From: an uncultured Pseudomonadales bacterium
Lineage (GTDB): Bacteria > Patescibacteriota > Microgenomatia > UBA1400 > MFAQ01
NCBI GenBank assembly: GCA_964509695.1
Contig: CAZDXN010000001.1
Span: forward strand, 51,188 to 115,187
Reading direction: 5' to 3'
DNA length: 64,000 nucleotides
Below, piece by piece: positions 3,482 to 25,371 of this stretch (within the stretch, counting starts at the first letter, position 1; every line of letters starts with the position of its first letter). The position numbers and the translations under genes were made by a program. Under the pieces are notes generated by a model. The model ran no database searches and was not told where the DNA came from. It worked only from the letters and a program-made list of their open reading frames with translations.

Positions 3482-4484
3482 TCTTTAACCAATTAAACCC
3501 CTTGCTTATTAGTTGTCGGGTTCCAATATTTCCAAAAATTATCCTCTCATATTCATTATGATTACCCCCGTTTATTTTCATTCGTCTTCGATAGTCGATC
3601 AACTTGTCAAGATGGACCAAATCCCACCACAAACCTCTGACAATCCAAATAATCATTTTCGTCTCACCAGCAAAACATAGTTTCAAGCAAACGAATCCCC
3701 AGCCCAAAATATGCAAGGGCAACATCCACCACATTTTCGAAGGTGCGTTTTTAATAATGTTGGCAGTGTTATTTTTAGCCCCTTCAAAAAATATTCTGTA
3801 CCTCGTTCGGGCGTTTAAACTGCTTTTTTGGTAGTGTCTCACCCGGGCTTGGGGGCAGTATATGATCTGATATCCCAGCTTCCACACCCGCCAACAGAGA
3901 TCAGTTTCCTCAGCATAGATTATGTAGTTCTCGTCAAATCCGCCAATCCTTTCAAATACCCTCTTTCTTATCGCCATAGCCGCGCTCCTTGCCCCGAAAA
4001 TTAGTCTTTCCTCATTCCAATTTTTTTCATTTTCATCAACGCCTATTTCATAGGGAAAGCCGAAGGGGGACAGAAAATGACCTCCCGATTCAACCCTCTC
4101 ACTATCTTTGGAAACAAGTTTGGCCTGCATTGCGCCGATCTTAGGACTAGACTCAAATTTGTCGGCCGCTATCGACAAAAAGTCTGTTTCAAGTCCGGTA
4201 TCAATGTCCAAAAACACCAAATAACGCCCTCTGGCCTTTGCCGCACCCAAGTTTCTTGACTTCGCTGCCCCCAAATTGGTCTTGTTTTCGATAACAAAAA
4301 CGTTCTCATATCGATCGTACTGACTCAATATTTTTCCTGATTCATCATTGGAAGCGTCGTTGATAACTATGATTTCAATGTCTTTTAAGCCATATTTTAA
4401 TACCGAATCGAGGCATGGTCCGATATAACGTCCCGCGTTGAAACAGGGAATAATCACCGAAATCGATATCTCCTTTTTTTTCAT
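3474..4484 (-). CDS. GT2 family glycosyltransferase
   Basis: ISISVIIPCFNAGRYIGPCLDSV...IIVINDASNDES and LVFLDIDT (DxD) motifs. The start was moved to the internal Met (MKKKEISIS), which abuts the upstream stop. Confidence 0.75.
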   Translation of the reverse strand: MKKKEISISVIIPCFNAGRYIGPCLDSVLKYGLKDIEIIVINDASNDESGKILSQYDRYENVFVIENKTNLGAAKSRNLGAAKARGRYLVFLDIDTGLETDFLSIAADKFESSPKIGAMQAKLVSKDSERVESGGHFLSPFGFPYEIGVDENEKNWNEERLIFGARSAAMAIRKRVFERIGGFDENYIIYAEETDLCWRVWKLGYQIIYCPQARVRHYQKSSLNARTRYRIFFEGAKNNTANIIKNAPSKMWWMLPLHILGWGFVCLKLCFAGETKMIIWIVRGLWWDLVHLDKLIDYRRRMKINGGNHNEYERIIFGNIGTRQLISKGFNWLKNV

Positions 4485-11512: not shown

Positions 11513-13051
11513 TCACGAGACTTCCTTACGCGCCATTGTCAGGTTGTATACGTGCTGTCTCACCCGCCTCATGGCGCGGAAGCCATAGGTGAATAGAAAT
11601 TGCCAGTCTCGGATTCGTCCGCTTCCCAAGAACTGGATTTGTCGCCATAGAAATTTTGGTGAGAAAGCGATGCCATACATCTTTCTGATCGCTTCGTAAT
11701 ACCTCTCATGAGGAATCGGTGTCTTTACAATCAATTTACTCATATCGTGATCGTTGTAATCACTTGTTAGAAGGACACCCTTTTCAAGACACTCGACATG
11801 ATATGGCGTGTAGTCCAAGGGCGTGCACAAGGTGACTTGGAGAGTCCGAGCTAGTCCCGAGTTCATCAGGTACCTGACGTACTCCACCGTTTGGTCCAGC
11901 ATCTTTTGCGTTTCCCAGTAGTACCCCACCATCATCGTCAGGTGAGGGTGAAGCCCGTACTTGGTCATCCAGTAGAGACAACGTTCAATATATTTTCTCT
12001 GATAGCCCTTATTTATCCGTCGGAGGGTTTCGTCACTACCCGACTCCAGTCCGATCAGGACGAAGCGGAAATTTGCTTTAGCCATTAGCTTAATTGTCTC
12101 CTCATCCAGATATTCGAAACGGGTATTAATCCCAAAATAACACCCCTTCTTGTGTAGGCCTCGGTCAATAATTCCTTGAGCGAACTCCCTCGCATCTGTT
12201 CCCCGGTACCAGACTCCGGAATCGTCAAAGATTTCCTTGACGTGATATTTGTTGATGAGCATCTCGTATTCGTCCAGACTGTTCTCCACCTTCATTTTGG
12301 TGAAGGTTAGGTCTGGTCCGTTGTAGCGGCAGAAGGTACACTTGCCGAACATACAGTCGCGGATGACACTGGTAGCATAAGTGCCGGGAGTTTGGAGGTA
12401 GTTTCCGTTTTCGAAAGCGTAATTCTTCCACCCGACCAGATCACGGTCGATGATCGGGGAGTTATTCACCGGTTCGACCCGTCGAAATTCTCCGGTGTCT
12501 CGATACTCCTTGTTCTTTACTCTGATTGTCAACCCTTCGATGTCACAACTCTTCCGCCAGTCGGTGTGGTCCCGAACAAAAGGCAACAGTTTTGCCAAGA
12601 CAAAATCCACATGATTACTTTTGAGAACAATATCGGTTCTCGAATTATCCAAGGTCTCCTCCGGCTTTCTCATCGAGTGATAACCGGTCATGATAAAGAT
12701 CGTCTTGGGCAAAACATTTTTTAGGTCGTTCGTCAGTTTCCAATAAAACTTCATCACCGGCGTAGTACTTTCAAAGACAACCACATCGGGTCTCCATTTC
12801 ACCAAGTCAGTTGACCACTTCTCAAATGTTTTTAGTTGGGCATTGCCGTCATCCCAACGGACTTTAAACTTGAGCTGTTTCAGCCAAGTCGCCGCTTGGG
12901 CGTAGGTCACTGGTAGTAGGTAAGTTGGCGTTTTGAAATACTGGACGTTTCGGTTCTGGGAGACCATCGCCTTCTGGCCTTTGGAGTTCACAATCGGCGG
13001 ATACGATATCGCCACCCTCAGCGTCCTATTACTTGTTGTTGTTCTTCTCAT
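11513..13051 (-). CDS. B12-binding radical SAM protein (variant Cx4Cx2C cluster)
   Basis: An N-terminal Rossmann-like B12-binding region is followed by a RDCMFGKCTFCRY radical SAM cysteine motif. Its sequence is distinct from the other five B12-rSAM paralogs. Confidence 0.7.
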   Translation of the reverse strand: MRRTTTSNRTLRVAISYPPIVNSKGQKAMVSQNRNVQYFKTPTYLLPVTYAQAATWLKQLKFKVRWDDGNAQLKTFEKWSTDLVKWRPDVVVFESTTPVMKFYWKLTNDLKNVLPKTIFIMTGYHSMRKPEETLDNSRTDIVLKSNHVDFVLAKLLPFVRDHTDWRKSCDIEGLTIRVKNKEYRDTGEFRRVEPVNNSPIIDRDLVGWKNYAFENGNYLQTPGTYATSVIRDCMFGKCTFCRYNGPDLTFTKMKVENSLDEYEMLINKYHVKEIFDDSGVWYRGTDAREFAQGIIDRGLHKKGCYFGINTRFEYLDEETIKLMAKANFRFVLIGLESGSDETLRRINKGYQRKYIERCLYWMTKYGLHPHLTMMVGYYWETQKMLDQTVEYVRYLMNSGLARTLQVTLCTPLDYTPYHVECLEKGVLLTSDYNDHDMSKLIVKTPIPHERYYEAIRKMYGIAFSPKFLWRQIQFLGSGRIRDWQFLFTYGFRAMRRVRQHVYNLTMARKEVS

Positions 13052-13095
13052 TTTTATTGTTTTGATTTTTTGAGTTTTCTCAGTTTTGAGTTTTT

Positions 13096-13785
13096 TTAAA
13101 AGAATACCTCCGTAATAATATTTGTCCCATTTACGCCTTGGCCTCTCAGTATGTCATATACCTCATTGATCATGTCACTATTGCCGCAAAGATAGCAAAC
13201 CGTCTTCAGGTCCACAGGATGCTTTCGTAGGTACTCTGTCACCCTCCCGAAATAAACATTGTCATTCCGAGCGGAACGAAGTGAAGTCGAGGAATCTCTT
13301 GAAATACAAACAATATATTTTCCTTCCGGATAATCCTTCCTATCATATTGCTCATTCACATAACTCACTCCATGCAAAACCGTGTAGTCCAGTTTGGGGT
13401 AGGAGAGCGCAAACGAGTGAAATGGGGCAATCCCGGTGCCGGTCCCGATAAATAAATATTTGTTCTTAGAATCCTCTGAATTGGCAATGGTGAACGATCC
13501 ATAGGCTCCGTCAATGGTAACTTCGTCACCGATCTCTAGTTTTTGTAGGATTGGTGACAATGACCCCCCCTTAACAGCCTTAATCAAAAACTCTAGATAT
13601 TTTTCATCTCTTCCGGAATAGGTTGAGTACTCGCGGTTGATTGCTTCCTTCGGTAGTCCAAGGTTCACACACTGCCCCGGAATAAATTCAAAACCCCTTC
13701 TCTCCACTCGAATCACAAAAGTCGAATCTGTCAAATGCCTAACCTTTAGTACTTTTACCATCGTAATCTTATTCATTATGGACAA
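13096..13785 (-). CDS. FNR-like FAD/NAD(P)-binding oxidoreductase (ferredoxin reductase-type) with in-frame palindromic insertion
   Basis: REYSTYS (RxYS FAD motif) and IGTGTGIAPF (NAD-binding) motifs. The true start is probably the ATG at 13776 (MNKITMVKV). Residues RDSSTSLRSARNDN are encoded by a palindromic element. Confidence 0.65.
   Translation of the reverse strand: MSIMNKITMVKVLKVRHLTDSTFVIRVERRGFEFIPGQCVNLGLPKEAINREYSTYSGRDEKYLEFLIKAVKGGSLSPILQKLEIGDEVTIDGAYGSFTIANSEDSKNKYLFIGTGTGIAPFHSFALSYPKLDYTVLHGVSYVNEQYDRKDYPEGKYIVCISRDSSTSLRSARNDNVYFGRVTEYLRKHPVDLKTVCYLCGNSDMINEVYDILRGQGVNGTNIITEVFF
13261..13296. repeat. Short palindromic element (gtcattccgagcggaacgaagtgaagtcgaggaatc) inside the FNR-like CDS
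   Basis: Same TGTCATTCC...GGAATC family as the elements in the 9279 gene. It is inserted in-frame. Confidence 0.6.
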
Positions 13786-13793
13786 TTATAACC
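13730..13793. repeat. Direct repeat copy a (about 64 bp) spanning the promoter and 5' end of the FNR-like gene
   Basis: gtcaaatgcctaacctttagtacttttaccatcgtaatcttattcattatggacaattataac. It is about 87% identical to 15054..15116 and has a diverged third copy at 16768..16828. Confidence 0.7.
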
Positions 13794-13880
13794 CCAGAAG
13801 AAATTCCGGGCATTGTGCCCGAATGTGGACAAATCGGCAGTTCAATTGACAATTTGTCCAAATTATCATAATATTTACCT

Positions 13881-15047
13881 ATGATTAATCGTATCCTTTT
13901 CGAACAAATCAAACTGGCGGCAACAAACTCTCCGATTATCGGAATTGTTGGGCCCAGGCAGTCCGGAAAGACAACTCTGGCCAAAACCGTATTTCCCAAA
14001 TACACATATGTCAATCTGGAACAACCAGACACTAGACAATATGCACAAAATGATCCCAAAGCCTTTTTAGCTCAATACAACGATAGGGTAATTTTAGACG
14101 AAATTCAAAGAGTGCCCGAATTATTTTCCTATCTTCAAGTAAAGGTTGATAATGACAAAAAAATGGGTCAATACATTTTGACCGGCTCACAACATTTTCT
14201 AATGTTGCAGTCAATCACCCAGTCTCTTGCCGGCAGGATATCAATTTTTCATCTATATCCACTTTCTTACGAAGAGCTACAAAACTCAAGGAAGCAAAAG
14301 AAAGACCTGTACACTCAAATTTGGTATGGTGGATACCCCCGTCTTTATGATCAAGAAATTTCGCCCTTAATTTGGCTAAACAACTATATTCAGACATATA
14401 TTGATCGTGATGTTAGTTTGATTTCTCAAATTACCAATCTAAAAACATTTGAAACATTTCTACACGTCATCGCCGGAAGAACGGGTCAGCTTTTGAATTT
14501 GTCGACATTGGGAAACGAGATTGGAGTTGCCCATAACACCATAAAATCCTGGATAAATCTATTGGAAACTAGCGGAATAACTTATCTACTTCAACCATAT
14601 CATTCAAACATAACCAAAAGGTTAATAAAAACACCAAAACTATATTTCACTGATACTGGTCTAGTGTGTCGCCTCTTGGGAATAGAAGCCCCCAGCCAGC
14701 TTAACACCCACCCACTCTATGGCTCGATCTTCGAAACACATGTTGTTATGGAATATATAAAATTTTATCTAAACAGAGGTTTATCACCCAACATCTATTT
14801 TTGGAGAGATAAAAAAGGACTGGAGGCCGATTTATACAAAAGCATTCCCGGTTCGAAAACTGATATGTTTGAAATCAAATCCAGCCAGACAATTCCCGAG
14901 AATGCCTTCGCAAACTTAAAACAAATTCAAGAAACGATCAAGGACAAATCAGAGCTAAACGTGATTTATGGTGGAGACGAAAACCAGTCACGCAGTCCCG
15001 GCCGGATAATCTCGTGGTCCTCTCTCCCCAAGTTTTTGTCCAAGTAA
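13881..15047 (+). CDS. AAA ATPase of the DUF4143 family
   Basis: Walker A GPRQSGKTTLAK, a Walker B-like ILDEIQ and a C-terminal DUF4143-like region. Direct repeats flank it. Confidence 0.75.
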   Translation: MINRILFEQIKLAATNSPIIGIVGPRQSGKTTLAKTVFPKYTYVNLEQPDTRQYAQNDPKAFLAQYNDRVILDEIQRVPELFSYLQVKVDNDKKMGQYILTGSQHFLMLQSITQSLAGRISIFHLYPLSYEELQNSRKQKKDLYTQIWYGGYPRLYDQEISPLIWLNNYIQTYIDRDVSLISQITNLKTFETFLHVIAGRTGQLLNLSTLGNEIGVAHNTIKSWINLLETSGITYLLQPYHSNITKRLIKTPKLYFTDTGLVCRLLGIEAPSQLNTHPLYGSIFETHVVMEYIKFYLNRGLSPNIYFWRDKKGLEADLYKSIPGSKTDMFEIKSSQTIPENAFANLKQIQETIKDKSELNVIYGGDENQSRSPGRIISWSSLPKFLSK

Positions 15048-15053
15048 ACATAG

Positions 15054-15116
15054 GTCAAATGCCGCACTTTCAGCACCTTTACCATCGTAATCTTATTCAT
15101 TCCGGACAATTATAAC
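15054..15116. repeat. Direct repeat copy b (duplicate of the FNR-like gene start)
   Basis: Its reverse complement encodes MNKITMVKVLKVRHLT, the same peptide that begins the FNR-like gene. It then diverges. Confidence 0.7.
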
Positions 15117-15147
15117 TCAAAAGGCTTTGACGACGGCCCAACCGGCC

Positions 15148-15176
15148 TTGACATTACCGTCAAAAAGTACTATCAT
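15148..15176 (+). promoter_or_regulatory. Near-consensus sigma70-type promoter TTGACA-N17-TATCAT with inverted repeat TTGAC..GTCAA upstream of abiEi
   Basis: ttgacattaccgtcaaaaagtactatcat lies 42 nt upstream of the 15218 ATG. The spacer holds a TTACCGT motif shared with the second abiE promoter. Confidence 0.55.
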
Positions 15177-15217
15177 TTCATAATTAGTATGTTTTATATA
15201 GTAATTATGAAACAAGT

Positions 15218-15856
15218 ATGAACAAAATCAACTACCTATCAAAGTTAAATTCAGCTAGTTTTTTCACAACAAATACCCTAAGAAGCACTGTGGGTGGAAA
15301 CGATGACGCCTTTAACGCCAATGTGGCTCGGTGGATGAAAAACGGTAGTTTGATTCAATTAAAAAAAGGCGTTTTTGTTACCAAGGAATATTATCAGCTT
15401 TGCACCGACAAACAAATTTATAATGAATTTATAGCCAATATACTCAAAAGACCATCATATCTAAGTGGGGAATATGTTCTGCAGAAATATGGCATGTTAT
15501 CCGAATCGGTTTTCTCGATCACCTCTGTCACTCGAAAGAAGACAAGGAATTACAGTAACAAATTAGGAGTGTTTATATATTCAAATATCAAAGAGAAACT
15601 ATTTACTGGCTTTGACATAGCAACCAGGTCGGGATTTGAGATAAAAGAAGCAACAAAGACAAAGGCGTTGTTTGATTATTTATATTATAGATTGTTAAGG
15701 GTGACAGAAATCAACCAAGAAATTATTGATTCTTTTAGGCTAAATTTAGGCGATTTAACCTCCAGTGATTACCAAGAATTAGAGTACTTTATTGATCTTT
15801 CAGACATCCAAAAATTTGTTAATTTAACACGTTATTTAAAAGAGACCTCAAAATGA
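15218..15856 (+). CDS. abiEi: AbiEi-like antitoxin / transcriptional regulator (type IV TA)
   Basis: It sits immediately upstream of, and overlaps, an AbiEii-type nucleotidyltransferase. The N-terminal ...NGSLIQLKKGVFV resembles the AbiEi wHTH pattern. Confidence 0.5.
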   Translation: MNKINYLSKLNSASFFTTNTLRSTVGGNDDAFNANVARWMKNGSLIQLKKGVFVTKEYYQLCTDKQIYNEFIANILKRPSYLSGEYVLQKYGMLSESVFSITSVTRKKTRNYSNKLGVFIYSNIKEKLFTGFDIATRSGFEIKEATKTKALFDYLYYRLLRVTEINQEIIDSFRLNLGDLTSSDYQELEYFIDLSDIQKFVNLTRYLKETSK

Positions 15857-16698
15857 TTATTGAAGAAATGAAATCATTGATTAATAAGCCCGGTGTACAG
15901 AATAAGTCGAGCTTGTATATTAGAAGCCTGCTAAAAGAGTTTTTGCAAATTTATGTACTCAATCATATTTATTTAAATCCAAAATACAACAAAGTGTTTG
16001 TGTTTACTGGGGGGACCTGTTTACGGCATTGTTTTGGTCTAAATAGGTTATCTGAGGATTTAGATTTTGATCTAAGAGTACCAATTGATGTGGCAGAATT
16101 AAAAAATTCCCTTGAGACTTATTTTAAAACTGAATTTATGTATGAGAGTCTGTCGGCCTCTATGTCACAAGGTGGAAAACAGCTGTTACTTAAATTTCCA
16201 GTGTTAAAAGGTTTGGGCCTAGCGACCCAATCTGAAAGTGATTTGTTGTATGTCAAGATAGATCTATCGCCCATGGCTTCCGAAAAATATGGTGAGAACA
16301 CGACCTTAAAAAATATCAACAACTTTAATTATTTGGTAACCCATTATGATTTGCCGTCGTTGATGGCTGGAAAAATTGTTACTATTTTGACCAGACAGCG
16401 ATTTTTGGGAAAAGCGAATATTAAAGTAATTAAAGGTCGGGACTATTTTGATTTACTGTGGTTTTTAGAGAAAAATGTTTTTCCAAATTTAGACAGGGTC
16501 AATGATTTGTTAAAAAGTTCTTATTCAATGTTGAAGCTACTAGTTTTGTTAGATGAGAAGGTAAAAATGGCAACTACAGTTAGCAAACAGTATCTTAAGC
16601 AAGATTTGATGCCTTTTATTGATAACCCCGTGCTTCTGGATGGGTATATTGAGAATTTCGAGAAGAACTATAACCAGGCCAAAACGTATCTAAAGTGA
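15853..16698 (+). CDS. abiEii: AbiEii/AbiGii-family nucleotidyltransferase toxin (DUF1814)
   Basis: FTGGTCLRHCFGLNRLSEDLDFD is the hallmark NTase motif of AbiEii. Confidence 0.75.
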   Translation: MIIEEMKSLINKPGVQNKSSLYIRSLLKEFLQIYVLNHIYLNPKYNKVFVFTGGTCLRHCFGLNRLSEDLDFDLRVPIDVAELKNSLETYFKTEFMYESLSASMSQGGKQLLLKFPVLKGLGLATQSESDLLYVKIDLSPMASEKYGENTTLKNINNFNYLVTHYDLPSLMAGKIVTILTRQRFLGKANIKVIKGRDYFDLLWFLEKNVFPNLDRVNDLLKSSYSMLKLLVLLDEKVKMATTVSKQYLKQDLMPFIDNPVLLDGYIENFEKNYNQAKTYLK

Positions 16699-16767
16699 AT
16701 TATTCATTGACTGTGTCCGTTTCGTGAGAGCTTTTCATTTCAAAGCCGTCGGGGGTTTCGACACCAG

Positions 16768-16828
16768 CCTAACCTTGAGTACGTTTACCATGTAATAATA
16801 TTCATTTTCTAGCTGAATTGTACAATAT
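16768..16828. repeat. Diverged third copy of the 64-bp direct repeat
   Basis: cctaaccttgagtacgtttaccatgtaataatattcatttt...acaatata aligns with copies a and b. It lies between abiEii and the epimerase gene. Confidence 0.45.
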
Positions 16829-16833
16829 ACCCC

Positions 16834-17760
16834 ATGGCAAAAAAGATTCTTGTCACTGGTGGCGCTGGCTTCATTGGTTCAAATACCACCAAACTACTTT
16901 GCGATAAAGGATTCCAAGTTGTTGTTTTTGATAATCTCTCTACCGGGTATAGGAAGCTTGTCGATACACGGGCAAAATTTATCAAGGGAGATCTCCTAAA
17001 TCAAAACGAGATTACCGAGGCACTCAAGGGGGTTGATCGCGTATTTCACTTTGCCGCCACCAGCTATATCAAAATCAGCATCGACGATTCGATTGGTTGT
17101 TTTCAGAACAATATCATGGCCACGGTCAATCTACTGGAAGCGATGAGAAAAAATAAGATCAAGTATCTGGTCAACTCCTCATCTGCCGCAGTTTATGGCG
17201 AACCGGAAATGATTCCAGTCAAAGAGGACTCCGTCAAACAACCACACCAGCCCTATGGTGGCTCGAAATTGGCAGTCGAGGCGGTTTTGTCTTCCTATTA
17301 CCACTCTTTTGGCATCAACAGCACCTCGCTTCGCTTTTTCAACGCCTACGGTCCGTTTGATGAACAGCGGCCAATTACTCGGGCCGTTCCCAATTGGATC
17401 AAACAAGTCTTAAATAACCAGCCAATTTCTCTCTATTGGAAAGGAAAACAACTTAGAGACTATGTCTTCGTTGAGGACATCGCCAGAGCTCACTTAGCTG
17501 TCATGGATCTATCAGGATATAACTATTTCAATATTGGTTCCGGAAAAGGAATTTTTATGATTGATCTGCTCGAAAGCATTTTCAAGGCGATCGGAAAGCA
17601 GACTCCCACCACAGATCTGGGGGAAAGGCCGGGCGATCCGATGAACTTGGTGGCTGACACGACAAAAATAGAGAAAGCCATTGGTTGGAAGCCCAGTTTC
17701 TCGCTGGATATGGGAATCAAATTAACCGTCGATTACTTCAAGAACTCAAGATTCAAATGA
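16834..17760 (+). CDS. NAD-dependent nucleotide-sugar epimerase/dehydratase (GalE-like)
   Basis: ILVTGGAGFIGS Rossmann motif and a YGGSK catalytic YxxxK motif. Confidence 0.8.
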   Translation: MAKKILVTGGAGFIGSNTTKLLCDKGFQVVVFDNLSTGYRKLVDTRAKFIKGDLLNQNEITEALKGVDRVFHFAATSYIKISIDDSIGCFQNNIMATVNLLEAMRKNKIKYLVNSSSAAVYGEPEMIPVKEDSVKQPHQPYGGSKLAVEAVLSSYYHSFGINSTSLRFFNAYGPFDEQRPITRAVPNWIKQVLNNQPISLYWKGKQLRDYVFVEDIARAHLAVMDLSGYNYFNIGSGKGIFMIDLLESIFKAIGKQTPTTDLGERPGDPMNLVADTTKIEKAIGWKPSFSLDMGIKLTVDYFKNSRFK

Positions 17761-18743
17761 TCATCTCCCAGACTCCCTTACGAATGAGTTTTGTTGGCGG
17801 CGGATCCGACTTGCCGTCTTTTTACCGGAAACAAGTCGGAGCCGTTGTCAGTGCCACCATCGATAAATATATCTACATCAACGTCAACAAAAAATTTGAC
17901 AACCAAATCAGGGCGAGCTATTCCATCACCGAGTTTGTTGACAAACCATCGAAGCTGAAGCACGAGCTGATCCGTGAATCTCTTAAACTTCTTGGAATAA
18001 AAAGCGGAATCGAAATTACTTCTATCGCCGACATTCCCTCGGGAGGCACCGGCCTAGGCTCTTCTAGTAGTTATACCGTTGGACTTCTAAACGCGCTAAA
18101 TGCATACCTTTCCAGATTTTCCAGCAAAGAACACCTAGCCTCTACCGCGTGTCGAGTTGAAATCGATAAGTGTAGAAAACCCATCGGCAAACAGGACCAA
18201 TACGCCGCCGCTTACGGTGGTCTAAATTTGATAGAGTTTCAACCGGATAATTCAGTAGTAGTTAATCCAATCATTTGTAAAGCTGACACCAAACACAAAC
18301 TCAACCAAAATCTATTATTACTCTATACAGGTATTTCTCGTTCTGCTGACGCCATTCTAGTTCACCAAAATAAGAACATGCTCTCAAACCACAAAACCCG
18401 CGATTTATTGGCCCAAATGGTCAAGCTCGCCTATCATCAAGCTGAATCTATTTCAAAAAATAACTTGAAGTCTTTTGGTGAAGCTTTAGATGAAAACTGG
18501 AAGATGAAGACAAAGCTTAGTCAAGGGATTAGCAATCCTACATTCGACAAATGGTATAACACAGCCAAAAGCAATGGGGCTATCGGCGGGAAAATCCTTG
18601 GCGCTGGCGGCGGGGGATTCTTCCTCCTTTATGCCCCCAAAAGTAAGCACGAGTCTATTGTCGAATCTCTCCCCAAGTTAAGAAAAATCAATTTCAATTT
18701 CGACGCGGAGGGTAGTAAAATTATCTATTATCAAGAAAACTAA
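17757..18743 (+). CDS. GHMP-family sugar kinase (HddA/fucokinase-like)
   Basis: The start sits in an ATGA overlap with the epimerase stop. PLRMSFVGGGSDLP N-terminus and the IPSGGTGLGSSSSYTVGLLNAL GHMP ATP-binding motif. Confidence 0.75.
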   Translation: MIISQTPLRMSFVGGGSDLPSFYRKQVGAVVSATIDKYIYINVNKKFDNQIRASYSITEFVDKPSKLKHELIRESLKLLGIKSGIEITSIADIPSGGTGLGSSSSYTVGLLNALNAYLSRFSSKEHLASTACRVEIDKCRKPIGKQDQYAAAYGGLNLIEFQPDNSVVVNPIICKADTKHKLNQNLLLLYTGISRSADAILVHQNKNMLSNHKTRDLLAQMVKLAYHQAESISKNNLKSFGEALDENWKMKTKLSQGISNPTFDKWYNTAKSNGAIGGKILGAGGGGFFLLYAPKSKHESIVESLPKLRKINFNFDAEGSKIIYYQEN

Positions 18744-18754
18744 CTAACTCACAT

Positions 18755-19282
18755 TTATTTGAACAACTCAACTTCAAAGATATTATTGTACTGTTTGAGA
18801 TAACTTGAAGTAAAATATACCCGGTAATATCGGTAGGCGGTATCGTTTTCAAATTCTACTGTGACCGGACTGGCGCCCATTGCTTCTGATCTTGACAGTA
18901 AATCTGTCCAGTCAGAATCATTATTTGACCCCTGCAATTTCCAATCTCTGAGTTGATTAGAAGATGAACGAACGTATACTTCCCTCGCAGTTTTTGTAAC
19001 CCCATCGCCCAAGTCGTACTTCCACCAGTGTGGGTAGGTGGAACTTGAGGAGTTCCAAAATGTATCGTTGTTATTATCAACAGCGTTATCAACCACGTTC
19101 AGACCCTCTATCGTGTCAGCGCTGGCTATTCCACCACTTAAGAAATCTGTCTCGGTTTTACCACCAAGAACTTCCGCTTTTTGTATCACTGGTTCGGCGA
19201 CCGGAGGAATGGCTGTAGGCTTGCAGGCGGCCAAGAACAAAGCCGAAACTAGTAATAAGCCAAGGGTTGTATACGTTTTCAT
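18755..19282 (-). CDS. Lipoprotein with F5/8 type C (discoidin)-like carbohydrate-binding domain
   Basis: Signal peptide with an LAAC lipobox. The NDTFWNSSSSTYPHWWKYDLG motif resembles the discoidin-domain W...P.W..VDLG pattern. Confidence 0.5.
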   Translation of the reverse strand: MKTYTTLGLLLVSALFLAACKPTAIPPVAEPVIQKAEVLGGKTETDFLSGGIASADTIEGLNVVDNAVDNNNDTFWNSSSSTYPHWWKYDLGDGVTKTAREVYVRSSSNQLRDWKLQGSNNDSDWTDLLSRSEAMGASPVTVEFENDTAYRYYRVYFTSSYLKQYNNIFEVELFK

Positions 19283-19289
19283 TAAGTAT

Positions 19290-19499
19290 TTAACTATTAA
19301 TTAATTTTATAGCTTCAGATGGACACGCCAGTGCCGCATTCTTAGCCATTTTATGGGTGGTCTTTTCACCTCCGTCAACCATTTTTCTAACTATCGACAC
19401 CATTCCCGTCTTTCCCTCCTTCATTTCAAAGATCTCAGGCGCCAATTCTACACATAGCCCGCAGCCAATACATAATTTGGGGTCGACTATTGCCTTCAT
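19290..19499 (-). CDS. Small single-cluster ferredoxin
   Basis: CIGCGLCVELAP ... ALACPSEAI cysteine pattern in a 69-aa protein. Confidence 0.7.
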   Translation of the reverse strand: MKAIVDPKLCIGCGLCVELAPEIFEMKEGKTGMVSIVRKMVDGGEKTTHKMAKNAALACPSEAIKLINS

Positions 19500-19578
19500 G
19501 AATGTAAAATACCATATATAGCGAGTTTATGAAAGTCATCTCCTTGCATCCTTGATTTAGAAAAATGATATAAATTAC

Positions 19579-21084
19579 ATGACTATGAAAGTTCTCCTCA
19601 TTAATCCCCCCTGGATATTAGACCAAAAAGACCAAGACTTTTTTCGTGTTACTCAGCCAGAAGGGCTAGGCTATATCAGTGCTGTTCTCAAGCAAGGGAG
19701 CCACGCGGTCAAACTTGTTGATGCTGCCGCCAGCGGCTGGTATAAAAAAAGAACCCTCCCCGATGGCAGAATCTATTACGGTCTTTCACACAATGAAATA
19801 GCCAGTATTATAAGGAAATTCAAACCGAAACTTGTTGGTATCTCTATAATATCGTCCCTGTTAAAAAATAATGGCTATTCACTTGCAAAATATATTAAAA
19901 ATAAATTTCCTTCAACCAAAATCGTCATCGGCGGTCCCCACCCATCGGTGACAGTCAAGGAATCGCTTAATAATTCATTTATAGACTTCGTTGTCTTCGG
20001 AGAGGGAGAAATCACGACCTTGGATTTAGTCAACCAATTGAGTAGACAAAAACCACGTTTCAAAGGAATTAATGGTCTTGCTTACAAATCAAAGGGAAAA
20101 ATATTCATTAACCCCATTAGGGATTTCATCAAAGATTTGGATAGTCTACCCTTCCCCGATCGAAGTCAGTATCCAATGCACGATTATTTTAAGGCTTCAC
20201 AAAAGCTCCTCTCCTCTTTCGCCCTTTCGACCTACAACAAACGCTGGGGAACCGTAATTAGTAGTCGGGGTTGTCCTTACAACTGCATCTTTTGCTCCAT
20301 TCATTTAACAATGGGGAAAATCTGGCGTTCACGCAGCGCCGAAAACGTCATGGCAGAAGTTGAACAACTGGTAAATAAATATCGAATTCAGAAAATTGCC
20401 TTTCTCGACGACAATATGACCTTTGATATTGAAAGAGTTCATCGAATTTGTGACCTTATTTTGGAAAGAAAATTAAAATTTCGATGGAGCACACCAAACG
20501 GAATTAGAGCTGATCGTTTAGACGAGACATTACTACTCAAAATGAAAAAAGCCGGTTGCGTCAGGATCGCCGTGGCTCCAGAAAGTGGCAGTCAAAAAGT
20601 GGTTTATCATTTAATAGGGAAGGCTCTTGATCTGAAAAAAGTTGTCGAAATAGTAAAAATCTGTAAGCGTATCGGGCTTAAAGTCGATTGTTTTTTCGTT
20701 ATGGGTTTACCAGGGGAAACAAAAAGAAACCTCCGTCAAACAATCAACTTTGCCTCCCACTTGAAAAGATTAGGCGCCAGCGGATTCAATTTGGCGATAG
20801 CTACCCCGTTCATTGGGACACGTCTCCATAAAGTATTCACCGACAAGGGCTTTCTCAAACCAGATTTCGATGAGTTTACAATGTTCAGGAATGAGTCTTT
20901 CATCGAAACGGACACTCTCAAAGCTGCCGATCTCATAAGATACAAAAACATCGCAGCGCGGCTGAATAGATTCCCGGTAGAATATATTAAATTTATAATA
21001 CTAGTTCTTTTCCGTGACCCAGAAAGATTTATTCGTCTATTCAAAGCGCAAATCCCCTCGAATTTTGCATTTATAAAGAAATAA
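19579..21084 (+). CDS. B12-binding radical SAM protein (class B)
   Basis: The N-terminal B12-binding Rossmann region (VKLVDAAASG..., GISIISS) is followed by a SRGCPYNCIFCS Cx3Cx2C motif. Confidence 0.75.
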   Translation: MTMKVLLINPPWILDQKDQDFFRVTQPEGLGYISAVLKQGSHAVKLVDAAASGWYKKRTLPDGRIYYGLSHNEIASIIRKFKPKLVGISIISSLLKNNGYSLAKYIKNKFPSTKIVIGGPHPSVTVKESLNNSFIDFVVFGEGEITTLDLVNQLSRQKPRFKGINGLAYKSKGKIFINPIRDFIKDLDSLPFPDRSQYPMHDYFKASQKLLSSFALSTYNKRWGTVISSRGCPYNCIFCSIHLTMGKIWRSRSAENVMAEVEQLVNKYRIQKIAFLDDNMTFDIERVHRICDLILERKLKFRWSTPNGIRADRLDETLLLKMKKAGCVRIAVAPESGSQKVVYHLIGKALDLKKVVEIVKICKRIGLKVDCFFVMGLPGETKRNLRQTINFASHLKRLGASGFNLAIATPFIGTRLHKVFTDKGFLKPDFDEFTMFRNESFIETDTLKAADLIRYKNIAARLNRFPVEYIKFIILVLFRDPERFIRLFKAQIPSNFAFIKK

Positions 21085-21089
21085 ACGAT

Positions 21090-22964
21090 ATGTGCGGAAT
21101 CGCTGGATTTAGATCAGCCGGTAATGAAAATAACAAGGTAACTCTCGACTCGATGTTGGCCACAATTACTCACCGTGGTCCTGATGAGAAGGGCGTTTTG
21201 TTTGATAAAGATCTCTCAATCGGCATGCGTCGACTTTCCATCATCGACCTTAATACCGGCAGTCAACCGATCTTTAATGAAGATAAGTCTATCGTTATTG
21301 TCTTCAACGGTGAAATATACAATTTCCAAAAACTATACCGGGATCTAAAAAGAAAAGGTCACAAATTTAGAACCAAAACAGACACCGAAGCGATCATTCA
21401 TTTATACGAAGATTTGGGTATTAGGTGTGTCGAAAAGCTAAACGGCATGTTTGCCTTTTGTATCTACGATAAATCAAAGGGAAAATTATTTTTTGCCGTC
21501 GATCGAGCTGGCAAAAAACCTTTATACATATATCATTCCGGACCCAATTTTGCTTTTTCCTCAGAACTAAAAAGTTTTTACAAGCTTCCATTTTTCAAAA
21601 AGCGCCTTAATATACCCGCTCTTGATAAATTCTTTCTTTATGGTTATATTCCCTCCCCCCTCACACCATATCTGAATACAGTAAAACTTCCAGGAGGTAG
21701 CCTTGCCGTTTTTGATATGCGCGAAAATAGTTTGACTTACAAGAATTATTGGGACTTTGATTATTCAGAAAAACTCGACCTTTCAGAAGCTGAATGGGTA
21801 AAGAAGATTGATCGTCTTCTCACCCAATCGGTTAGAAGTCGACTTGTATCTGACGTTCCCCTAGGCTGTTTCTTGAGTGGTGGGGTCGATAGTAGTCTCG
21901 TCGTAGCTTGCATGAGCAAGTTCCTCAAGGGTAGAGATATAAAGACTTTTAGCATTGGCTTCGATGAACAAAGAGTGAATGAATCGAATTATGCACGACA
22001 AGTAGCGGATCTGTATCACACCGACCACCATCTAAAGATATTTCCTCAAAACGAGGCGCTTTCCGTTAGCCGGGAAATCTTTACCAAGATGGATGAGCCG
22101 CTAGCCGACCCCTCCATCCTTCCCACTTTTCTACTCTCCCAATTCACTCGCGGTTACGTCACTGTTTCTCTTAGCGGGGACGGTGGCGATGAAATGTTTG
22201 GTGGCTATCCAAAGTATTACATCCACCGCTATGCCCGTTATCTGGACATGCTTCCTGAAAAGCTGAAACTGAGCCTAGCAGAAAAGATATCTCAAAGACT
22301 AAAGACTAGCCCCAATAATAAATATCTAAACTACAAAGCAATTAGATTTTTGAATAGTCTCAAGTACCCACCCATACTTCGAAATCAGATCTGGTCGGGG
22401 AGCTTTTTACCAGATGAGGCCGGCCATCTAATTTCTGACATTAAAAGTAACGCTGTCGACCTAATGACCGAAGCACCGGAACTTATCAGGAGTCAAACAT
22501 TTTCGGACCCTCTCGATATAATGTTATATCTCGACGCCAAGCTAATGCTTAAAGACGCCTATTTAACCAAGGTTGACCGTGCCAGTATGGCCGCATCGCT
22601 CGAAGTTCGCTCTCCATTTTTGGACAAATCGATTCTCGATATTACCGGCCGAATCCCCCTTGGATTAAAAGTAAAAGGCAGACAGACCAAATATCTCCTA
22701 AAGCTAGTTGCAGAAAAATATTTCCCCAGAGAGTTGGTCTATCGCCACAAACAGGGTTTTGGCCTACCCCTCGCCGAATGGTTTCGTCGAAAGGAATTAA
22801 CCTCTGAAATTAGAGAGCTACTAGGACAGAGAAGGGGAGTGGATAGACTTTCAACCTCATATATAAATTCACTGATAAGAATGCATCAAAATGGTACCTT
22901 TGATTACTCAACCCAACTCTGGACTATCTATGCCTACCTCAACTGGGTTCAATATAACCTTTAA
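21090..22964 (+). CDS. asnB: Asparagine synthase (glutamine-hydrolysing)-type amidotransferase
   Basis: MCGIAGF N-terminal nucleophile, SGGVDSS PP-loop and the overall AsnB architecture. Confidence 0.85.
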   Translation: MCGIAGFRSAGNENNKVTLDSMLATITHRGPDEKGVLFDKDLSIGMRRLSIIDLNTGSQPIFNEDKSIVIVFNGEIYNFQKLYRDLKRKGHKFRTKTDTEAIIHLYEDLGIRCVEKLNGMFAFCIYDKSKGKLFFAVDRAGKKPLYIYHSGPNFAFSSELKSFYKLPFFKKRLNIPALDKFFLYGYIPSPLTPYLNTVKLPGGSLAVFDMRENSLTYKNYWDFDYSEKLDLSEAEWVKKIDRLLTQSVRSRLVSDVPLGCFLSGGVDSSLVVACMSKFLKGRDIKTFSIGFDEQRVNESNYARQVADLYHTDHHLKIFPQNEALSVSREIFTKMDEPLADPSILPTFLLSQFTRGYVTVSLSGDGGDEMFGGYPKYYIHRYARYLDMLPEKLKLSLAEKISQRLKTSPNNKYLNYKAIRFLNSLKYPPILRNQIWSGSFLPDEAGHLISDIKSNAVDLMTEAPELIRSQTFSDPLDIMLYLDAKLMLKDAYLTKVDRASMAASLEVRSPFLDKSILDITGRIPLGLKVKGRQTKYLLKLVAEKYFPRELVYRHKQGFGLPLAEWFRRKELTSEIRELLGQRRGVDRLSTSYINSLIRMHQNGTFDYSTQLWTIYAYLNWVQYNL

Positions 22965-22967
22965 CAA

Positions 22968-23882
22968 ATGACCAAAGAGCTTGTTTCCATAATTATTCCG
23001 ACACGAAACCGATGTCAAAAATTACTTCGGTGTTTAAATTCGCTAGAAAAAATCAATTATCCTTACACCGAAACGATCATCGTCGATAACGCCTCATCAG
23101 ACGATACCGTCGCAACAATAAAAAAACGATTCCCAAAGCACAAAGTAATAAGACTTTCAAAAAACAAAGGCGCTGTTGGTGGTAGGAACGCTGGACTCAA
23201 GTTCGCTCGTGGTAAATATTTACTTTTTGTTGACGACGACAATATCGTCACGGTAAATTTCCTAGACAAACTGGTTCAGCTGGCAATCACCGACCCGACG
23301 ATCGGTTTCGTCGGTCCCAAAATGAATTACTTCAAAGACAAAAAACGAATTTGGTTCGCCGGCGTCAAGATAAATCTATTAACCTCATGGACCCATTACC
23401 TTGGAATAAACCAACTGGACCGTGGCCAATTTGATCAAATTAGGGAGATAGATCAGATCCCCAATGTTTGGTTGGTAAAGAGAGAGGTCGTAGAAAAAAT
23501 TGGAGGACTCGATAAGAATTATGTCATGTCCTATGGCGAGTCAGACTGGCCAATGAGAGCAAAGAGGGCGGGGTTCAGGGTTCTATTCTGCCCTGGCTCG
23601 GTCGTTTATCACGATATCGTTCCGCCGAAGAATCTCAAAGAAAACATCCTACTTCGAGCCACACCATATCGAGCCTATTATTTTGCCAGAAATCGGATCA
23701 TTTTTATGCGCCGCTTTACCAGTAAAGCCAACTTTCTAATTTTTCTTTTCATATTCAATAATTTGTTCACCATTTATTATCTTTACACTTATTCTAAAGG
23801 AGGAAAGTTCAATCTTTGTTTTTGGCACCTACGGGGAATCGTTGACGGGATACTTAATAGAAATTATCAATTCAAGGAATAG
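22968..23882 (+). CDS. GT2 family glycosyltransferase
   Basis: VSIIIPTRNRCQKL...IIVDNASSDDT and LLFVDDDN motifs. The C-terminus is hydrophobic. Confidence 0.7.
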   Translation: MTKELVSIIIPTRNRCQKLLRCLNSLEKINYPYTETIIVDNASSDDTVATIKKRFPKHKVIRLSKNKGAVGGRNAGLKFARGKYLLFVDDDNIVTVNFLDKLVQLAITDPTIGFVGPKMNYFKDKKRIWFAGVKINLLTSWTHYLGINQLDRGQFDQIREIDQIPNVWLVKREVVEKIGGLDKNYVMSYGESDWPMRAKRAGFRVLFCPGSVVYHDIVPPKNLKENILLRATPYRAYYFARNRIIFMRRFTSKANFLIFLFIFNNLFTIYYLYTYSKGGKFNLCFWHLRGIVDGILNRNYQFKE

Positions 23883-23919
23883 ATAGACGAATGAAGGCTC
23901 TTACGTTATATTTAGCCAA

Positions 23920-25371
23920 ATGAAAGTTCTGTTAGTTAGCCCCTGGATGAAGACTTTGTATGGTGATGAAAAAACCGTCCCCGGCCATCCTCATCTTGGA
24001 TTGGGGTATCTGACCGCGGTTCTAAAGAAGAATAAACACCAAGTCAGGGTCTTTGACCAGGCCATCGAAAACGATGACGCGAAACTCTATGAATTAATTA
24101 GATCATTCAAACCAGACTTGATTGGATTTAATGCCTTTAGTTATTGCACCAAGTACGTTTCGGATCTTTCACAAGAAGTTAGGAAACGGACCAAAACTCC
24201 ATTAATTCTCGGAGGACCCCATGTCTCCGCGGTTCGTTCTCGCGTACTGGAACAAATGCCCTTTGATTACGCCATCAAAGGTGAAGCCGAAGCTAGTTTG
24301 CTGGTATTTCTAAACGAAATGAAGAAAAAAAAGCCAAAATTTGACACAGTCAAAGGATTAATTTGGCGTAATTCAAAAGGGGAGATTATTGAAAACCAGG
24401 ACATGGCCTACATACATGACCTCGACGCAATTCCTTTTCCGGATTATTCTGAATTCAAATTCGAAAAATATGCCTATTTTACCAGCAAAACCATGCCCAT
24501 CATTACCAGCCGAGGATGCCCCTATGGCTGTAACTATTGCTCGGTCAAGTTATCTATGGGGAGAGGATTCCGCCCACGAAGCCCCCAAAATGTTTTAGCT
24601 GAAATAAAACATTGGTGCGGACAAGGATTCAAAAAATTCGAGATCAATGACGACTGTTTCAGTTTGGACTTGAAAAGAGCCGAGAAAATCTGCGATCTAC
24701 TGATCGAACAAAAGCTAAATATCAGCTACGATATGTATAACGGTATCCGCGCCGACAGGGTAAGTAAGATTCTTCTCCAAAAAATGAAAAACTCAGGCTG
24801 CAAATTCATTTCTTATGGTTGTGAATCAGGAGATCAAAATATCATTATTTCCATGGGAAAGAATCTCAAACTTACGGAAGTAACAAAAGCAGTAAAATTG
24901 ACAAATAAAATCGGCATTAGAAACTCGGTAAACTTTATTATTGGCCACTCAAGCGAAACCAAAAAATCAGCCGAAAAAACACTAGAGTTTGCCAAGAAAC
25001 TTCCCACAGACTTCGTGAACTTTTACAACGTCATTCCTTATCCTGGAACCGATCTATATAACTGGATCGAAAAAAAAGGCCAGTGGATTTATCACCCTGA
25101 CTACATCATGAAGAATATCGGTAGTCGGGACTTGAAACCCGCCTTTGAAACTGAGGGGTTCTCTTCTGAAGAAAGAATTGTAACCCTTAAAAAAGGCTTT
25201 GCCCTTTACGAAAAAAGCGTTCTCAATTTTCGTTTTGGCAAATTCTTTGGGAGAGTCATATATTACCTTACTCGAAATCGAAAGATTTTTTCAGCGGCAC
25301 TCAAGCTGATGCTAAGTACTAAATTGGGCTTTAAATTATATTCTTTAATAACATTTAAATCGCGCCAATAA
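23920..25371 (+). CDS. B12-binding radical SAM protein (class B)
   Basis: TSRGCPYGCNYCS motif and B12-binding N-terminus. Paralog of 19579, 26177, 45863 and 47978. Confidence 0.75.
   Translation: MKVLLVSPWMKTLYGDEKTVPGHPHLGLGYLTAVLKKNKHQVRVFDQAIENDDAKLYELIRSFKPDLIGFNAFSYCTKYVSDLSQEVRKRTKTPLILGGPHVSAVRSRVLEQMPFDYAIKGEAEASLLVFLNEMKKKKPKFDTVKGLIWRNSKGEIIENQDMAYIHDLDAIPFPDYSEFKFEKYAYFTSKTMPIITSRGCPYGCNYCSVKLSMGRGFRPRSPQNVLAEIKHWCGQGFKKFEINDDCFSLDLKRAEKICDLLIEQKLNISYDMYNGIRADRVSKILLQKMKNSGCKFISYGCESGDQNIIISMGKNLKLTEVTKAVKLTNKIGIRNSVNFIIGHSSETKKSAEKTLEFAKKLPTDFVNFYNVIPYPGTDLYNWIEKKGQWIYHPDYIMKNIGSRDLKPAFETEGFSSEERIVTLKKGFALYEKSVLNFRFGKFFGRVIYYLTRNRKIFSAALKLMLSTKLGFKLYSLITFKSRQ

Follow-up and report, generated by a model that had tools for sequence, protein, structure and literature searches.

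The window, that is, the whole stretch of 64,000 nucleotides analysed, contains an FNR-like gene whose start is present as three direct copies (A, B and C) that bracket two cassettes, one with a candidate defence ATPase and one with abiEi/abiEii. The repeated segment comprises a -10 box, a short leader and the first 13-16 codons of the gene. The features, with positions in the window, are as follows.

13096-13776, minus strand: FNR-like oxidoreductase gene (FAD_binding_6 and NAD_binding_1; Pfam)
13730-13792, minus strand: copy A, the live copy, with FNR codons 1-16, an 8-nt leader and a TATAAT -10 box
13793-13812: filler A, 20 nt separating copy A from the ATPase unit; contributes one half of a hairpin (13805-13823)
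13813-15047, plus strand: DUF4143/AAA_14 ATPase unit, ORF at 13881-15047 (Pfam, PADLOC)
15048-15053: ACATAG, 6 nt from the ATPase stop codon to copy B
15054-15116, minus strand: copy B, the FNR 5' end of another allele, putatively displaced, with a T'-type promoter, ATG and 16 intact codons
15117-15142: filler B, 26 nt between copy B and the AbiE unit
15143-16698, plus strand: AbiE type IV toxin-antitoxin unit, abiEi at 15218-15856 and abiEii at 15853-16698 (PADLOC, Pfam)
16704-16774, plus strand: internal fragment of a GT2 glycosyltransferase gene, codons about 140-162 (..IDCVRFVRAFHFKAVGGFDTSLT), from alignment to relatives
16767-16774: GCCTAACC, an 8-nt microhomology common to the GT2 parent and the FNR 5' parent (three-way alignment)
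16767-16805, minus strand: copy C, a decaying remnant of the FNR 5' end (codons 1-13) that has lost 1 nt and carries K3I and K8N
16806-16833: divergent intergenic region of ancestral type, with the perfect palindrome ATTGTACAAT (16817-16826)
16834-17760, plus strand: NAD-dependent epimerase (Pfam), the first gene of the resumed glycan operon

The start codon of the FNR-like gene is the ATG at 13776, followed by the conserved N-terminus MNKIxxVKVLKVRHLTDSTF (alignment of 34 homologues). The gene is the first of a pair with a radical-SAM gene (11513-13051), and the pair is kept in about 50 loci. These two genes form the only flank conserved across all relatives: radical-SAM proteins of close relatives are 85-97% identical in amino acid sequence, while everything upstream of FNR is variable among relatives.

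The repeat of about 64 bp described in the original prediction is real, and its coordinates were good to within 1-2 nt. On the minus strand it reads GTTATAATTGTCC(ATA/GGA), then ATG and FNR-like codons 1-16 (MNKITMVKVLKVRHLT), which bears out the proposed overlap of copy A with the promoter and first codons of the gene. The copy A promoter is of the T' type, GTTATAATTGTCCATA-ATG. A repeat search of the window aligned copies A and B over 63 nt with 87% identity and a spacing of 1324, and copy B encodes the same 16 residues as copy A, both as had been claimed. A 24-nt core, TTTACCATCGTAATCTTATTCATT, has two exact occurrences in the 64-kb window versus 0 expected (100 shuffles). A 47-aa ORF (14966-15109) begins in copy B and extends, antisense, into the 3' end of the ATPase gene. 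The degraded third copy, which had been placed at 16768-16828, begins at 16767, and its right limit is the ATG at 16805, beyond which lies the different, ancestral-type intergenic region. Copy C is identical to copy A at 35/40 positions, with 92% identity over the 25 nt at 16767-16791. The similarity of filler A to the epimerase 5' end was not significant (p=0.22).

The gene content was also as predicted, with the ATPase between copies A and B, abiEi/abiEii between B and C, and then the epimerase. The ATPase unit has its own promoter (TTGACA-17-TAATAT at 13846-13874) and a palindrome, GGACAAAT..ATTTGTCC. Its protein matches the candidate defence profile PDC-S01 (PDLC04790, E=8e-101), with both PF13173 and PF13635 present. 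Units with the same ends were found elsewhere in unrelated contexts, in L050 (90.7% amino acid identity), L065 (91%) and L066 (84%). For the AbiE unit, a promoter scan detected TTGACA-17-TATCAT at 15148-15176, and the inverted repeat 15176-15190/15198-15212 is the probable AbiEi operator. The two genes overlap by 4 nt and encode AbiEi (PADLOC E=1e-43) and AbiEii (PADLOC E=3e-30; Pfam PF08843 E=2e-19), the AbiEi plus AbiEii/DUF1814 nucleotidyltransferase pair of an AbiE operon. Window positions 15143-16692 share 83% nucleotide identity with L055:2599-4148 and 75% with L057, and close homologues occur in unrelated contexts (L055-L061). In the bicistronic abiEi-abiEii arrangement, the overlapping genes and the inverted repeat in the promoter, the module resembles described AbiE systems (PMC3985639, PMC7319586); it is an ordinary one, and only its genomic setting is of interest. 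Both cargo units are self-contained from promoter through stop codon. GC content is 0.34-0.38 across the cassette region versus about 0.42 elsewhere.

Most of the 68 nt that separate copy C from the abiEii stop come from the interior of a GT2 gene, with 95% identity over 63 nt to L043:4493-4555. In L043, L045, L052 and L053 that GT2 gene (273 aa) sits between the epimerase and FNR; here only codons about 140-162 of 273 remain. The microhomology GCCTAACC reads AGC CTA ACC in the GT2 parent (L043) and is the reverse complement of codons 11-13 in the FNR parent. Joined to the GT2 interior by microhomology at its left edge, copy C bears the mark of illegitimate recombination, and 16767-16774 is read here as the junction of such an event. 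To the right of copy C, the palindrome ATTGTACAAT forms an extended -10 box (TGTACAAT) on either strand and is predicted to serve only the epimerase now. A GHMP kinase gene (17757-18743) follows the epimerase. Epimerase orthologues with 74-89% identity are found in L054, L053, L043, L045 and L052.

Comparison of the FNR-epimerase interval among relatives uncovered the empty site that the original prediction had anticipated. In L054 the orthologous epimerase (with GHMP) and FNR are divergent neighbours separated by 24 nt. Copy C together with 16806-16833 is orthologous to the FNR/epimerase junction of L054, L047, L046, L048, L049 and L002. The sequential insertion of accessory genes into a glycan locus is upheld by this empty site, by the low GC content and by the occurrence of the cargo elsewhere in unrelated contexts. 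No second FNR start was found in about 50 related FNR loci. AbiE pairs adjoin the FNR start in three independent lineages (the window, L047 and L064). Those of L047 and L064 have other breakpoints and no flanking FNR repeats: in L047 the insertion lies at about epimerase codon 5, and in L064 it is co-directional and lies at -26.

Copies A and B differ at eight positions, two in the leader and six inside codons, and all six codon differences are synonymous. A random substitution in these codons would be synonymous in just 20% of cases, which gives a probability of about 6e-5 for 6/6 under neutral decay. Differences occupy about half of the roughly 11 synonymous sites, and copy B has no replacement change or indel. 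Copy B differs from the live FNR of L052/L053 at 2 of 47 nt and from copy A at 6; copy A has 3 differences from L045. The all-synonymous differences and the closeness of B to L052/L053 therefore indicate that A and B are alleles which evolved as working genes in different lineages. Copy C has a frameshift and two non-conservative replacements, none of which is seen in B, and is therefore probably the older displaced copy.

This pattern bears directly on one conceivable origin of the repeats, in which the gene start was duplicated in place (as a long target-site duplication or in tandem) and the outer copies then decayed neutrally. Such a duplication fits the direct orientation and the drop in identity with distance from the gene, C being more degraded than B, but it is refuted for A versus B by the synonymous differences, copy B is nearer to L052/L053 than to copy A, and the intergenic region of copy C is of the ancestral type, unlike those of A and B. 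We consider it highly improbable. An assembly or binning chimera that joined strain variants at shared sequence is equally hard to credit, even though the data are metagenomic, the locus varies among strains and cargo homologues often come from contigs of 1.3-1.6 kb. With 87% identity and no more than a 24-nt exact core in common, the copies are too short to have misled an assembler; every gene is intact, and the junctions are consistent internally. Moreover, a separate Logan assembly (run SRR12113420) is identical over window positions 12083-25047 (12,965 nt), all three copies included.

Searches for mobile-element features were negative throughout. The search for an integrase or recombinase suggested in the original prediction was run in the cassettes and the scanned ORFs of the window: the four cassette proteins and another 24 ORFs (Pfam; 1-13, 16.8-18.7, 25-28 and 52-64 kb) contained no recombinase domain, and none appears among the Pfam hits precomputed for 12-25 kb. 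The cassettes showed neither terminal inverted repeats nor a transposase. DNA folds of the three copies were no better than those of shuffles (z +0.5 to +0.9), Rfam gave no match, and the 24-nt core was absent from viral contigs. A transposon target-site duplication, one of the identities proposed for the repeat, was rejected, since the repeat is long (63 nt), has allele-type synonymous divergence and is accompanied by neither terminal inverted repeats nor a transposase. The proposal of terminal repeats of a mobilisable unit is unsupported, with no recombinase in the cassettes or scanned ORFs and no terminal inverted repeats or hairpin sites found. Integron attC sites were likewise rejected because the repeats do not fold and no integrase was found in the ORFs scanned.

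The original prediction had also offered an attachment site. If the 63-nt segment were an att site in the FNR 5' end, integrase-less cassettes could be mobilised in trans, each restoring the gene with a replacement FNR start of its own. Direct repeats do bound each cassette, the innermost copy does restore the gene, breakpoints cluster at codons 13-16 and at -21, and AbiE pairs recur beside the FNR start. Synonymous repeat differences are also seen with element-borne replacement gene ends. Phage 21 and e14 in icd are integrative elements of this kind; as here, the duplicated gene end keeps the target intact and the copies differ mainly by synonymous changes. However, phage 21 and e14 have an integrase of their own and recombine at defined att cores in the gene's 3' end, whereas here the 5' end is involved, no recombinase was found in the cassettes or scanned ORFs and one junction is microhomology-mediated. 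The missing recombinase and the core's absence from viral contigs count against an att site, as do the L047 and L064 insertions and the join of copy C to the GT2 interior. Repeat boundaries do not recur in about 50 loci, and neither the FNR segment nor an equivalent repeat was found flanking ATPase or AbiE units elsewhere. Site-specific integration is thus quite unlikely. An integrase is not required if small circles, either excised cassettes or plasmid-like molecules, carried a roughly 65-nt FNR-start segment (T) with cargo and integrated by a single RecA crossover at the FNR start (Campbell-type integration), since T-cargo-T arrays then arise without a dedicated one. The ATPase cassette is exactly T-X-T, with A and B both spanning -21 to codon 16, and it contains the 24-nt identical core inside a 39-nt stretch (13754-13792 / 15078-15116) in which A and B share 95% identity. 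Such a crossover would be expected to leave hybrid or foreign alleles, so the synonymous differences fit as well. Nevertheless, this route does not predict the GT2 fragment and the microhomology at copy C, which ends at codon 13 and not 16; about 65 nt at 87% identity is a poor RecA substrate; and neither a circle-like contig nor a second T-X-T genome was found among viral contigs and about 50 related loci. It also leaves unexplained the first step that put T on a circle. We regard it as unlikely.

The repeats are probably the leftovers of successive homology-facilitated illegitimate recombination (HFIR) anchored in the FNR/radical-SAM pair. At least two successive imports from related Patescibacteria strains would have entered the divergent FNR/epimerase junction of this hypervariable glycan cluster. 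On one side the incoming DNA would pair by homology in the highly conserved FNR/radical-SAM genes, and on the other an illegitimate join would fall a few codons inside the resident FNR gene. Each import would deliver a new working FNR start with its promoter and the adjacent cargo unit, and the resident start would be pushed outward as a dead fragment. In the older event the AbiE unit and the GT2 piece would have arrived, leaving copy C beside the epimerase, where the bidirectional promoter on its side would still drive the glycan operon. In the younger event the present FNR start (copy A) and the DUF4143 ATPase would have arrived, stranding copy B. What we infer from the arrangement is in which direction and order the exchanges took place, that the homologous anchor lay on the FNR side, and that the DNA was taken up by natural transformation. 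At the copy C junction, the anchor may have lain either in FNR, AbiE being the import, or in the epimerase, in which case the promoter fragment was the import.

Several observations count against HFIR. Microhomology could be demonstrated at the copy C junction only, and not for the one at copy B, where the ATPase stop, ACATAG and FNR codon 16 meet. The displaced fragments C and B were cut at nearly one place (codons 13 and 16), a coincidence of a few percent if two independent illegitimate joins in a gene of roughly 680 nt are assumed; it could be accounted for if nothing but short repeats persists stably. Upstream of the T'-type promoter, the three different contexts seen in copy A, copy B and L064 all cease to be homologous within about 2 nt of -21, which hints at a preferred breakpoint. 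No donor genome with FNR-T'-ATPase or FNR-T'-AbiE-truncated GT2 was recovered.

HFIR is known from the naturally transformable S. pneumoniae, A. baylyi and P. stutzeri, where its signature is a microhomology of 3-10 bp at the illegitimate junction and an insertion coupled with a deletion (PMC3240628). The proposed conserved anchor on one side and foreign join on the other would be shared with those cases, and no recombinase is needed. The 8-nt microhomology between otherwise unrelated parents at copy C lies within the 3-10 bp range, and resident DNA was lost with the insertion, as the GT2 remnant, cut on both sides, and the FNR remnants attest. The host group is reported to be competent: natural competence has been demonstrated for Saccharibacteria, and Patescibacteria are described as widely carrying competence genes (PMC10633639, PMC12455944). 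The present case differs in that the mechanism is deduced from sequence only, and in its two successive events at one site, each leaving a recognisable gene-start remnant.

A similar displacement occurs in Rhs, CDI and T6SS effector-immunity arrays, in which successive imports are anchored in the conserved part of a gene and a new module pushes the old variable end outward, producing strings of orphaned allele fragments. For these an HFIR-like mechanism was proposed and the absence of an integrase noted (Kirchberger et al. 2017, PMC5361080, where Jackson et al. 2009 is cited on rhs). Those arrays displace toxin-gene 3' ends and immunity genes, whereas here an oxidoreductase of housekeeping type would have had its 5' end and promoter displaced, with unrelated cargo (the AbiE pair and the DUF4143 ATPase) and in only two steps. 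Integron cassette arrays likewise stack small, single-function cassettes close to the promoter, with repeats of about 60 nt between them. They differ in that no intI was found here, the repeats are pieces of the neighbouring gene and not imperfect palindromes, and each cassette has its own promoter. The locus is a clean but fairly ordinary example of genome mosaicism.

Alignment confirms the three direct repeats that the original prediction had placed around the accessory genes (copies A, B and C). The 24-nt repeat core occurs exactly twice in the 64 kb against no occurrences in shuffled sequences, and no third exact copy was found in the window. The predicted gene content between the copies is also correct (DUF4143 ATPase, abiEi/abiEii, then the epimerase):

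Features of the interval between the FNR-like oxidoreductase gene (FNR) and the epimerase
13730-13792, minus strand: copy A, direct repeat
13881-15047: ATPase gene with AAA_14 and DUF4143 domains, matching PADLOC candidate PDC-S01
15054-15116, minus strand: copy B, 63 nt, 87% identity to copy A
15218-16698: abiEi/abiEii pair, between copies B and C
16767-16805, minus strand: copy C, shorter and degraded, placed by alignment
16834 (start): epimerase gene, next after copy C

A separately made Logan assembly is identical to the window over 12083-25047. From the names that the homologues bear, the organism belongs to the Patescibacteria, probably to the Microgenomates group. Read on the minus strand, the repeat consists of a TATAAT box, an 8-nt leader, an ATG and codons 1-16 of FNR. 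The alignment of 34 homologues shows MNKIxxVKVLKVRHLTDSTF to be the conserved FNR N-terminus, and the start codon is therefore at 13776.

Copies A and B differ at eight positions, six in codons 8-13 and two in the leader. All six codon differences are synonymous (AAA/AAG, GTA/GTG, CTA/CTG, AAG/AAA, GTT/GTG, AGG/CGG); only 20% of random substitutions in codons 8-13 would be, which gives P(6/6) ~6e-5. Copy B has no replacement changes and no indels, and it differs from the live FNR genes of the relatives L052 and L053 at 2 of 47 nt, compared with 6 from copy A. Copy A shows three differences from L045. Given codon differences that are all synonymous, and the closeness of copy B to L052 and L053, each copy evolved in its own lineage as the start of a functioning gene. 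Such a pattern cannot come from a target-site or tandem duplication whose outer copy then decayed. Copy C carries a 1-nt deletion and the changes K3I and K8N at conserved positions; this is true pseudogene decay and makes it the older displaced copy. When annotators meet short direct repeats that encode the start of a neighbouring gene again, these can be allele remnants instead of att sites, and the synonymous/replacement ratio between the copies separates the two.

The TATAAT box, the ATG and all 16 codons are intact in copy B, which opens a 47-aa ORF (14966-15109, minus strand) that enters the ATPase gene from its 3' end in antisense orientation. Its promoter might still be firing, in which case transcription would converge with that of the ATPase gene. 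A GC-rich hairpin at 13805-13823 (CCGGGCA-TTG-TGCCCGA) lies across the point where filler A meets the ATPase unit; on the minus strand it is scored as terminator-like, immediately upstream of the FNR promoter. The fillers, short stretches adjoining copies A (13793-13812) and B (15117-15142) on the cassette side, were considered as decayed 5' ends of the epimerase, with a repeat unit of ~95 nt, but the shuffle test was not significant (p=0.22 and 0.66).

FNR and the downstream 512-aa radical SAM gene are kept as a pair in ~50 fetched loci of other genomes, and the DNA upstream of FNR differs from relative to relative. The empty site expected under the predicted sequential insertion exists, and that part of the prediction was right: in L054, whose FNR is 79% identical to that of the window, epimerase and GHMP kinase orthologues are divergent from FNR with only 24 nt between. 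L046, L047, L048, L049 and L002 also have this divergent junction, with the motif tattgtacaat, and copy C together with the next 28 nt (16806-16833) is orthologous to this ancestral FNR/epimerase junction. Within the 28-nt intergenic region, 16817-16826 is a perfect palindrome, ATTGTACAAT, which on either strand forms an extended -10 box (TGTACAAT) and whose conservation extends to L046-L049, L002 and L054; by its sequence it looks like a minimal bidirectional promoter with near-leaderless transcripts. Copies A and B have a common promoter variant, GTTATAATTGTCC (T'), found elsewhere only in L064. None of the ~50 related loci has a second FNR start within its own locus, and exact look-up of the window epimerase returned no strain variants.

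In the closest relatives (L043, L052, L053, L045), a gene for a 273-aa GT2 glycosyltransferase lies between the epimerase and FNR. A remnant of the same gene occupies the corresponding place in the window: the 68 nt from the abiEii stop to copy C are mostly an internal GT2 fragment (16704-16774, codons ~140-162, IDCVRFVRAFHFKAVGGFDTSLT), 95% identical to L043. The GT2 and FNR fragments overlap by 8 nt, GCCTAACC (16767-16774), which is found in both parental sequences; by a rough estimate, a random join would show such an overlap with a probability on the order of 1e-4. Micro-homology of 3-10 bp at the illegitimate junction, and insertion coupled to deletion, are the signature of homology-facilitated illegitimate recombination (HFIR; PMC3240628). 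A reading of the 68-nt spacer as a divergent FNR remnant ('VETPDGF') was wrong; the sequence is a GT2 fragment, on the other strand. The L043 epimerase orthologue (3230-4326) falls into two ORFs, of 222 aa and 111 aa, the latter containing the N-terminal 45 residues, and is apparently frameshifted or disrupted.

Both cargo units carry their own near-consensus promoter according to the promoter scan, and GC across the cassettes falls to 0.34-0.38. The ATPase unit extends from ~68 nt upstream of its ATG, near (A)AT(C/T)GTGCC, to the stop codon (13813-15047 in the window), and has the same ends in three unrelated contexts: L050:17330-18565 (90.7% aa), L065:216-1450 (91%) and L066 (84%). The DNA downstream of the ATPase is unrelated in these closest homologues. 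The AbiE unit (15143-16692) shares 83% nucleotide identity with L055 and L056, in which it is flanked by a radical SAM gene and by another glycan operon. Its promoter contains a 15-nt inverted repeat, and AbiEi binds a promoter inverted repeat of such a type in characterised systems (PMC7319586). Viewed on its own, the ATPase gene behaves as one discrete unit from promoter to stop, its sharp ends the same in four unrelated contexts, and neither inverted repeats nor a target duplication nor a transposase was seen. Many of its close homologues are on contigs of 1.3-1.6 kb, which means that the assemblies break off on either side of the gene.

No recombinase or transposase domain was detected in the cassettes, in 24 further scanned ORFs or in the precomputed annotation of 12-25 kb. 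The cassettes have no terminal inverted repeats; hairpin potential or attC-like folding of the repeats was not found; the repeat core has no match in viral contigs; and the Rfam search of 13000-17500 gave one sub-threshold chance hit only. A 7-nt inverted match around the ATPase ORF (ACCTATG/CATAGGT) was taken as chance, being absent in L065 and L050. The original prediction had proposed an attachment site, a target-site duplication or the terminal repeats of a mobilisable unit. These are not supported, given the lack of a recombinase in the scanned ORFs, the lack of inverted repeats and the synonymous-only A/B differences.

The best explanation is probably mosaicism of the HFIR type. Successive imports from related strains would have entered the FNR/epimerase junction, each held by homology in FNR and radical SAM on one side and joined illegitimately on the other, a short way into the resident FNR gene. 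The older import would have brought in FNR (B allele)-T'-AbiE-GT2 fragment, joined to copy C, the ancestral intergenic region and the epimerase; the younger, carrying FNR (A allele)-T'-ATPase, would have left copy B stranded. At the copy C junction the reverse polarity is just as possible: the anchor would lie in the epimerase and GHMP genes, and a short piece of promoter, taking some FNR codons along, would have replaced the 3' part of a GT2 gene already truncated by AbiE, giving the epimerase operon a promoter again. Among described systems, the nearest parallels are the displacement arrays at Rhs, CDI and T6SS effector-immunity loci; an HFIR-like process has been put forward for them (PMC5361080). 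Among Patescibacteria, natural competence has been documented (PMC12455944; PMC10633639). DNA exchange between related strains appears here to be resolved through two joins, a homologous one and one by microhomology. The locus would be a nucleotide-resolution example of streamlined uncultured Patescibacteria acquiring defence and toxin-antitoxin genes without mobile-element machinery, at an essential-looking glycan locus.

Breakpoint positions bear on the other readings. The displaced copies B and C are cut no more than 7 nt apart (codons 16 and 13), and in the three T' upstream contexts (A, B and L064) homology ends within ~2 nt of -21. Of the main rivals, Campbell-type integration driven by homology is unlikely, and site-specific integration in trans is slightly less likely still. 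The window, L047 (= L062, L063) and L064 all have AbiE pairs adjoining the FNR start, and these pairs belong to three different subfamilies. Together with the clustering, this keeps alive, at low probability, a preferred capture site, possibly circle-mediated or site-specific. It is improbable that the FNR promoter and gene start act as a preferred landing pad for self-contained defence cassettes, which naturally competent Patescibacteria would take up there time and again with no integrase, in a homology- or microhomology-driven functional analogue of the integron. In its favour are the AbiE pairs beside FNR in three independent lineages, the clustering at -21 and codons 13-16, the identical and sharp ATPase unit ends in four contexts, and an unrelated array in L057 of four AbiE pairs separated by conserved ~38-nt repeats. 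The clustering, if real, would point to integrase-free cassette capture.

The other AbiE loci vary in arrangement. In L047 (7637-9990; same in L062 and L063), from a relative in Hainich groundwater, the epimerase gives way to two AbiE pairs after ~5 codons (GTGGCAAAAAAAAC), with FNR and the ancestral intergenic region left whole; toxin-antitoxin genes were here inserted independently at the FNR/epimerase junction, on the opposite side of the promoter. L064:142-1504 holds an unrelated third pair (202 and 221 aa), co-directional and 26 nt upstream of an FNR with a T'-type promoter (GTTATATAATTGTTCGGA-ATG), as in copies A and B. The array at L057:5229-9967, also present in L058-L061, comprises four tandem AbiEi/AbiEii pairs that are mutually only ~35% identical. 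The direct repeat ATAAGTATTGAGTATGTATCTTTTTCTATAGGATTTTAG follows each pair at spacings of 1612, 1421 and 1645 nt, is much better conserved than the genes, and has its last copy upstream of a 699-aa gene; it was not found in the window or the other loci. A second AbiE pair in the window (55540-56930, minus strand; AbiEii of 259 aa, PF08843, and a putative AbiEi of 204 aa with no Pfam hit) belongs to the same glycan cluster, is divergent from the PMT_2 gene at 57004, and has no flanking repeats that a search could find.

FNR and the ~500-aa radical SAM gene form a tightly conserved two-gene module in L002-L040 (radical SAM 69-78% identical), also present in MAGs that bear the labels Nitrospinae, SAR324, Planctomycetia and Verrucomicrobia. 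Several TPA MAG labels found on Patescibacteria-like contigs (Pseudomonadales, Gammaproteobacteria) look like mis-binning or mislabelling.
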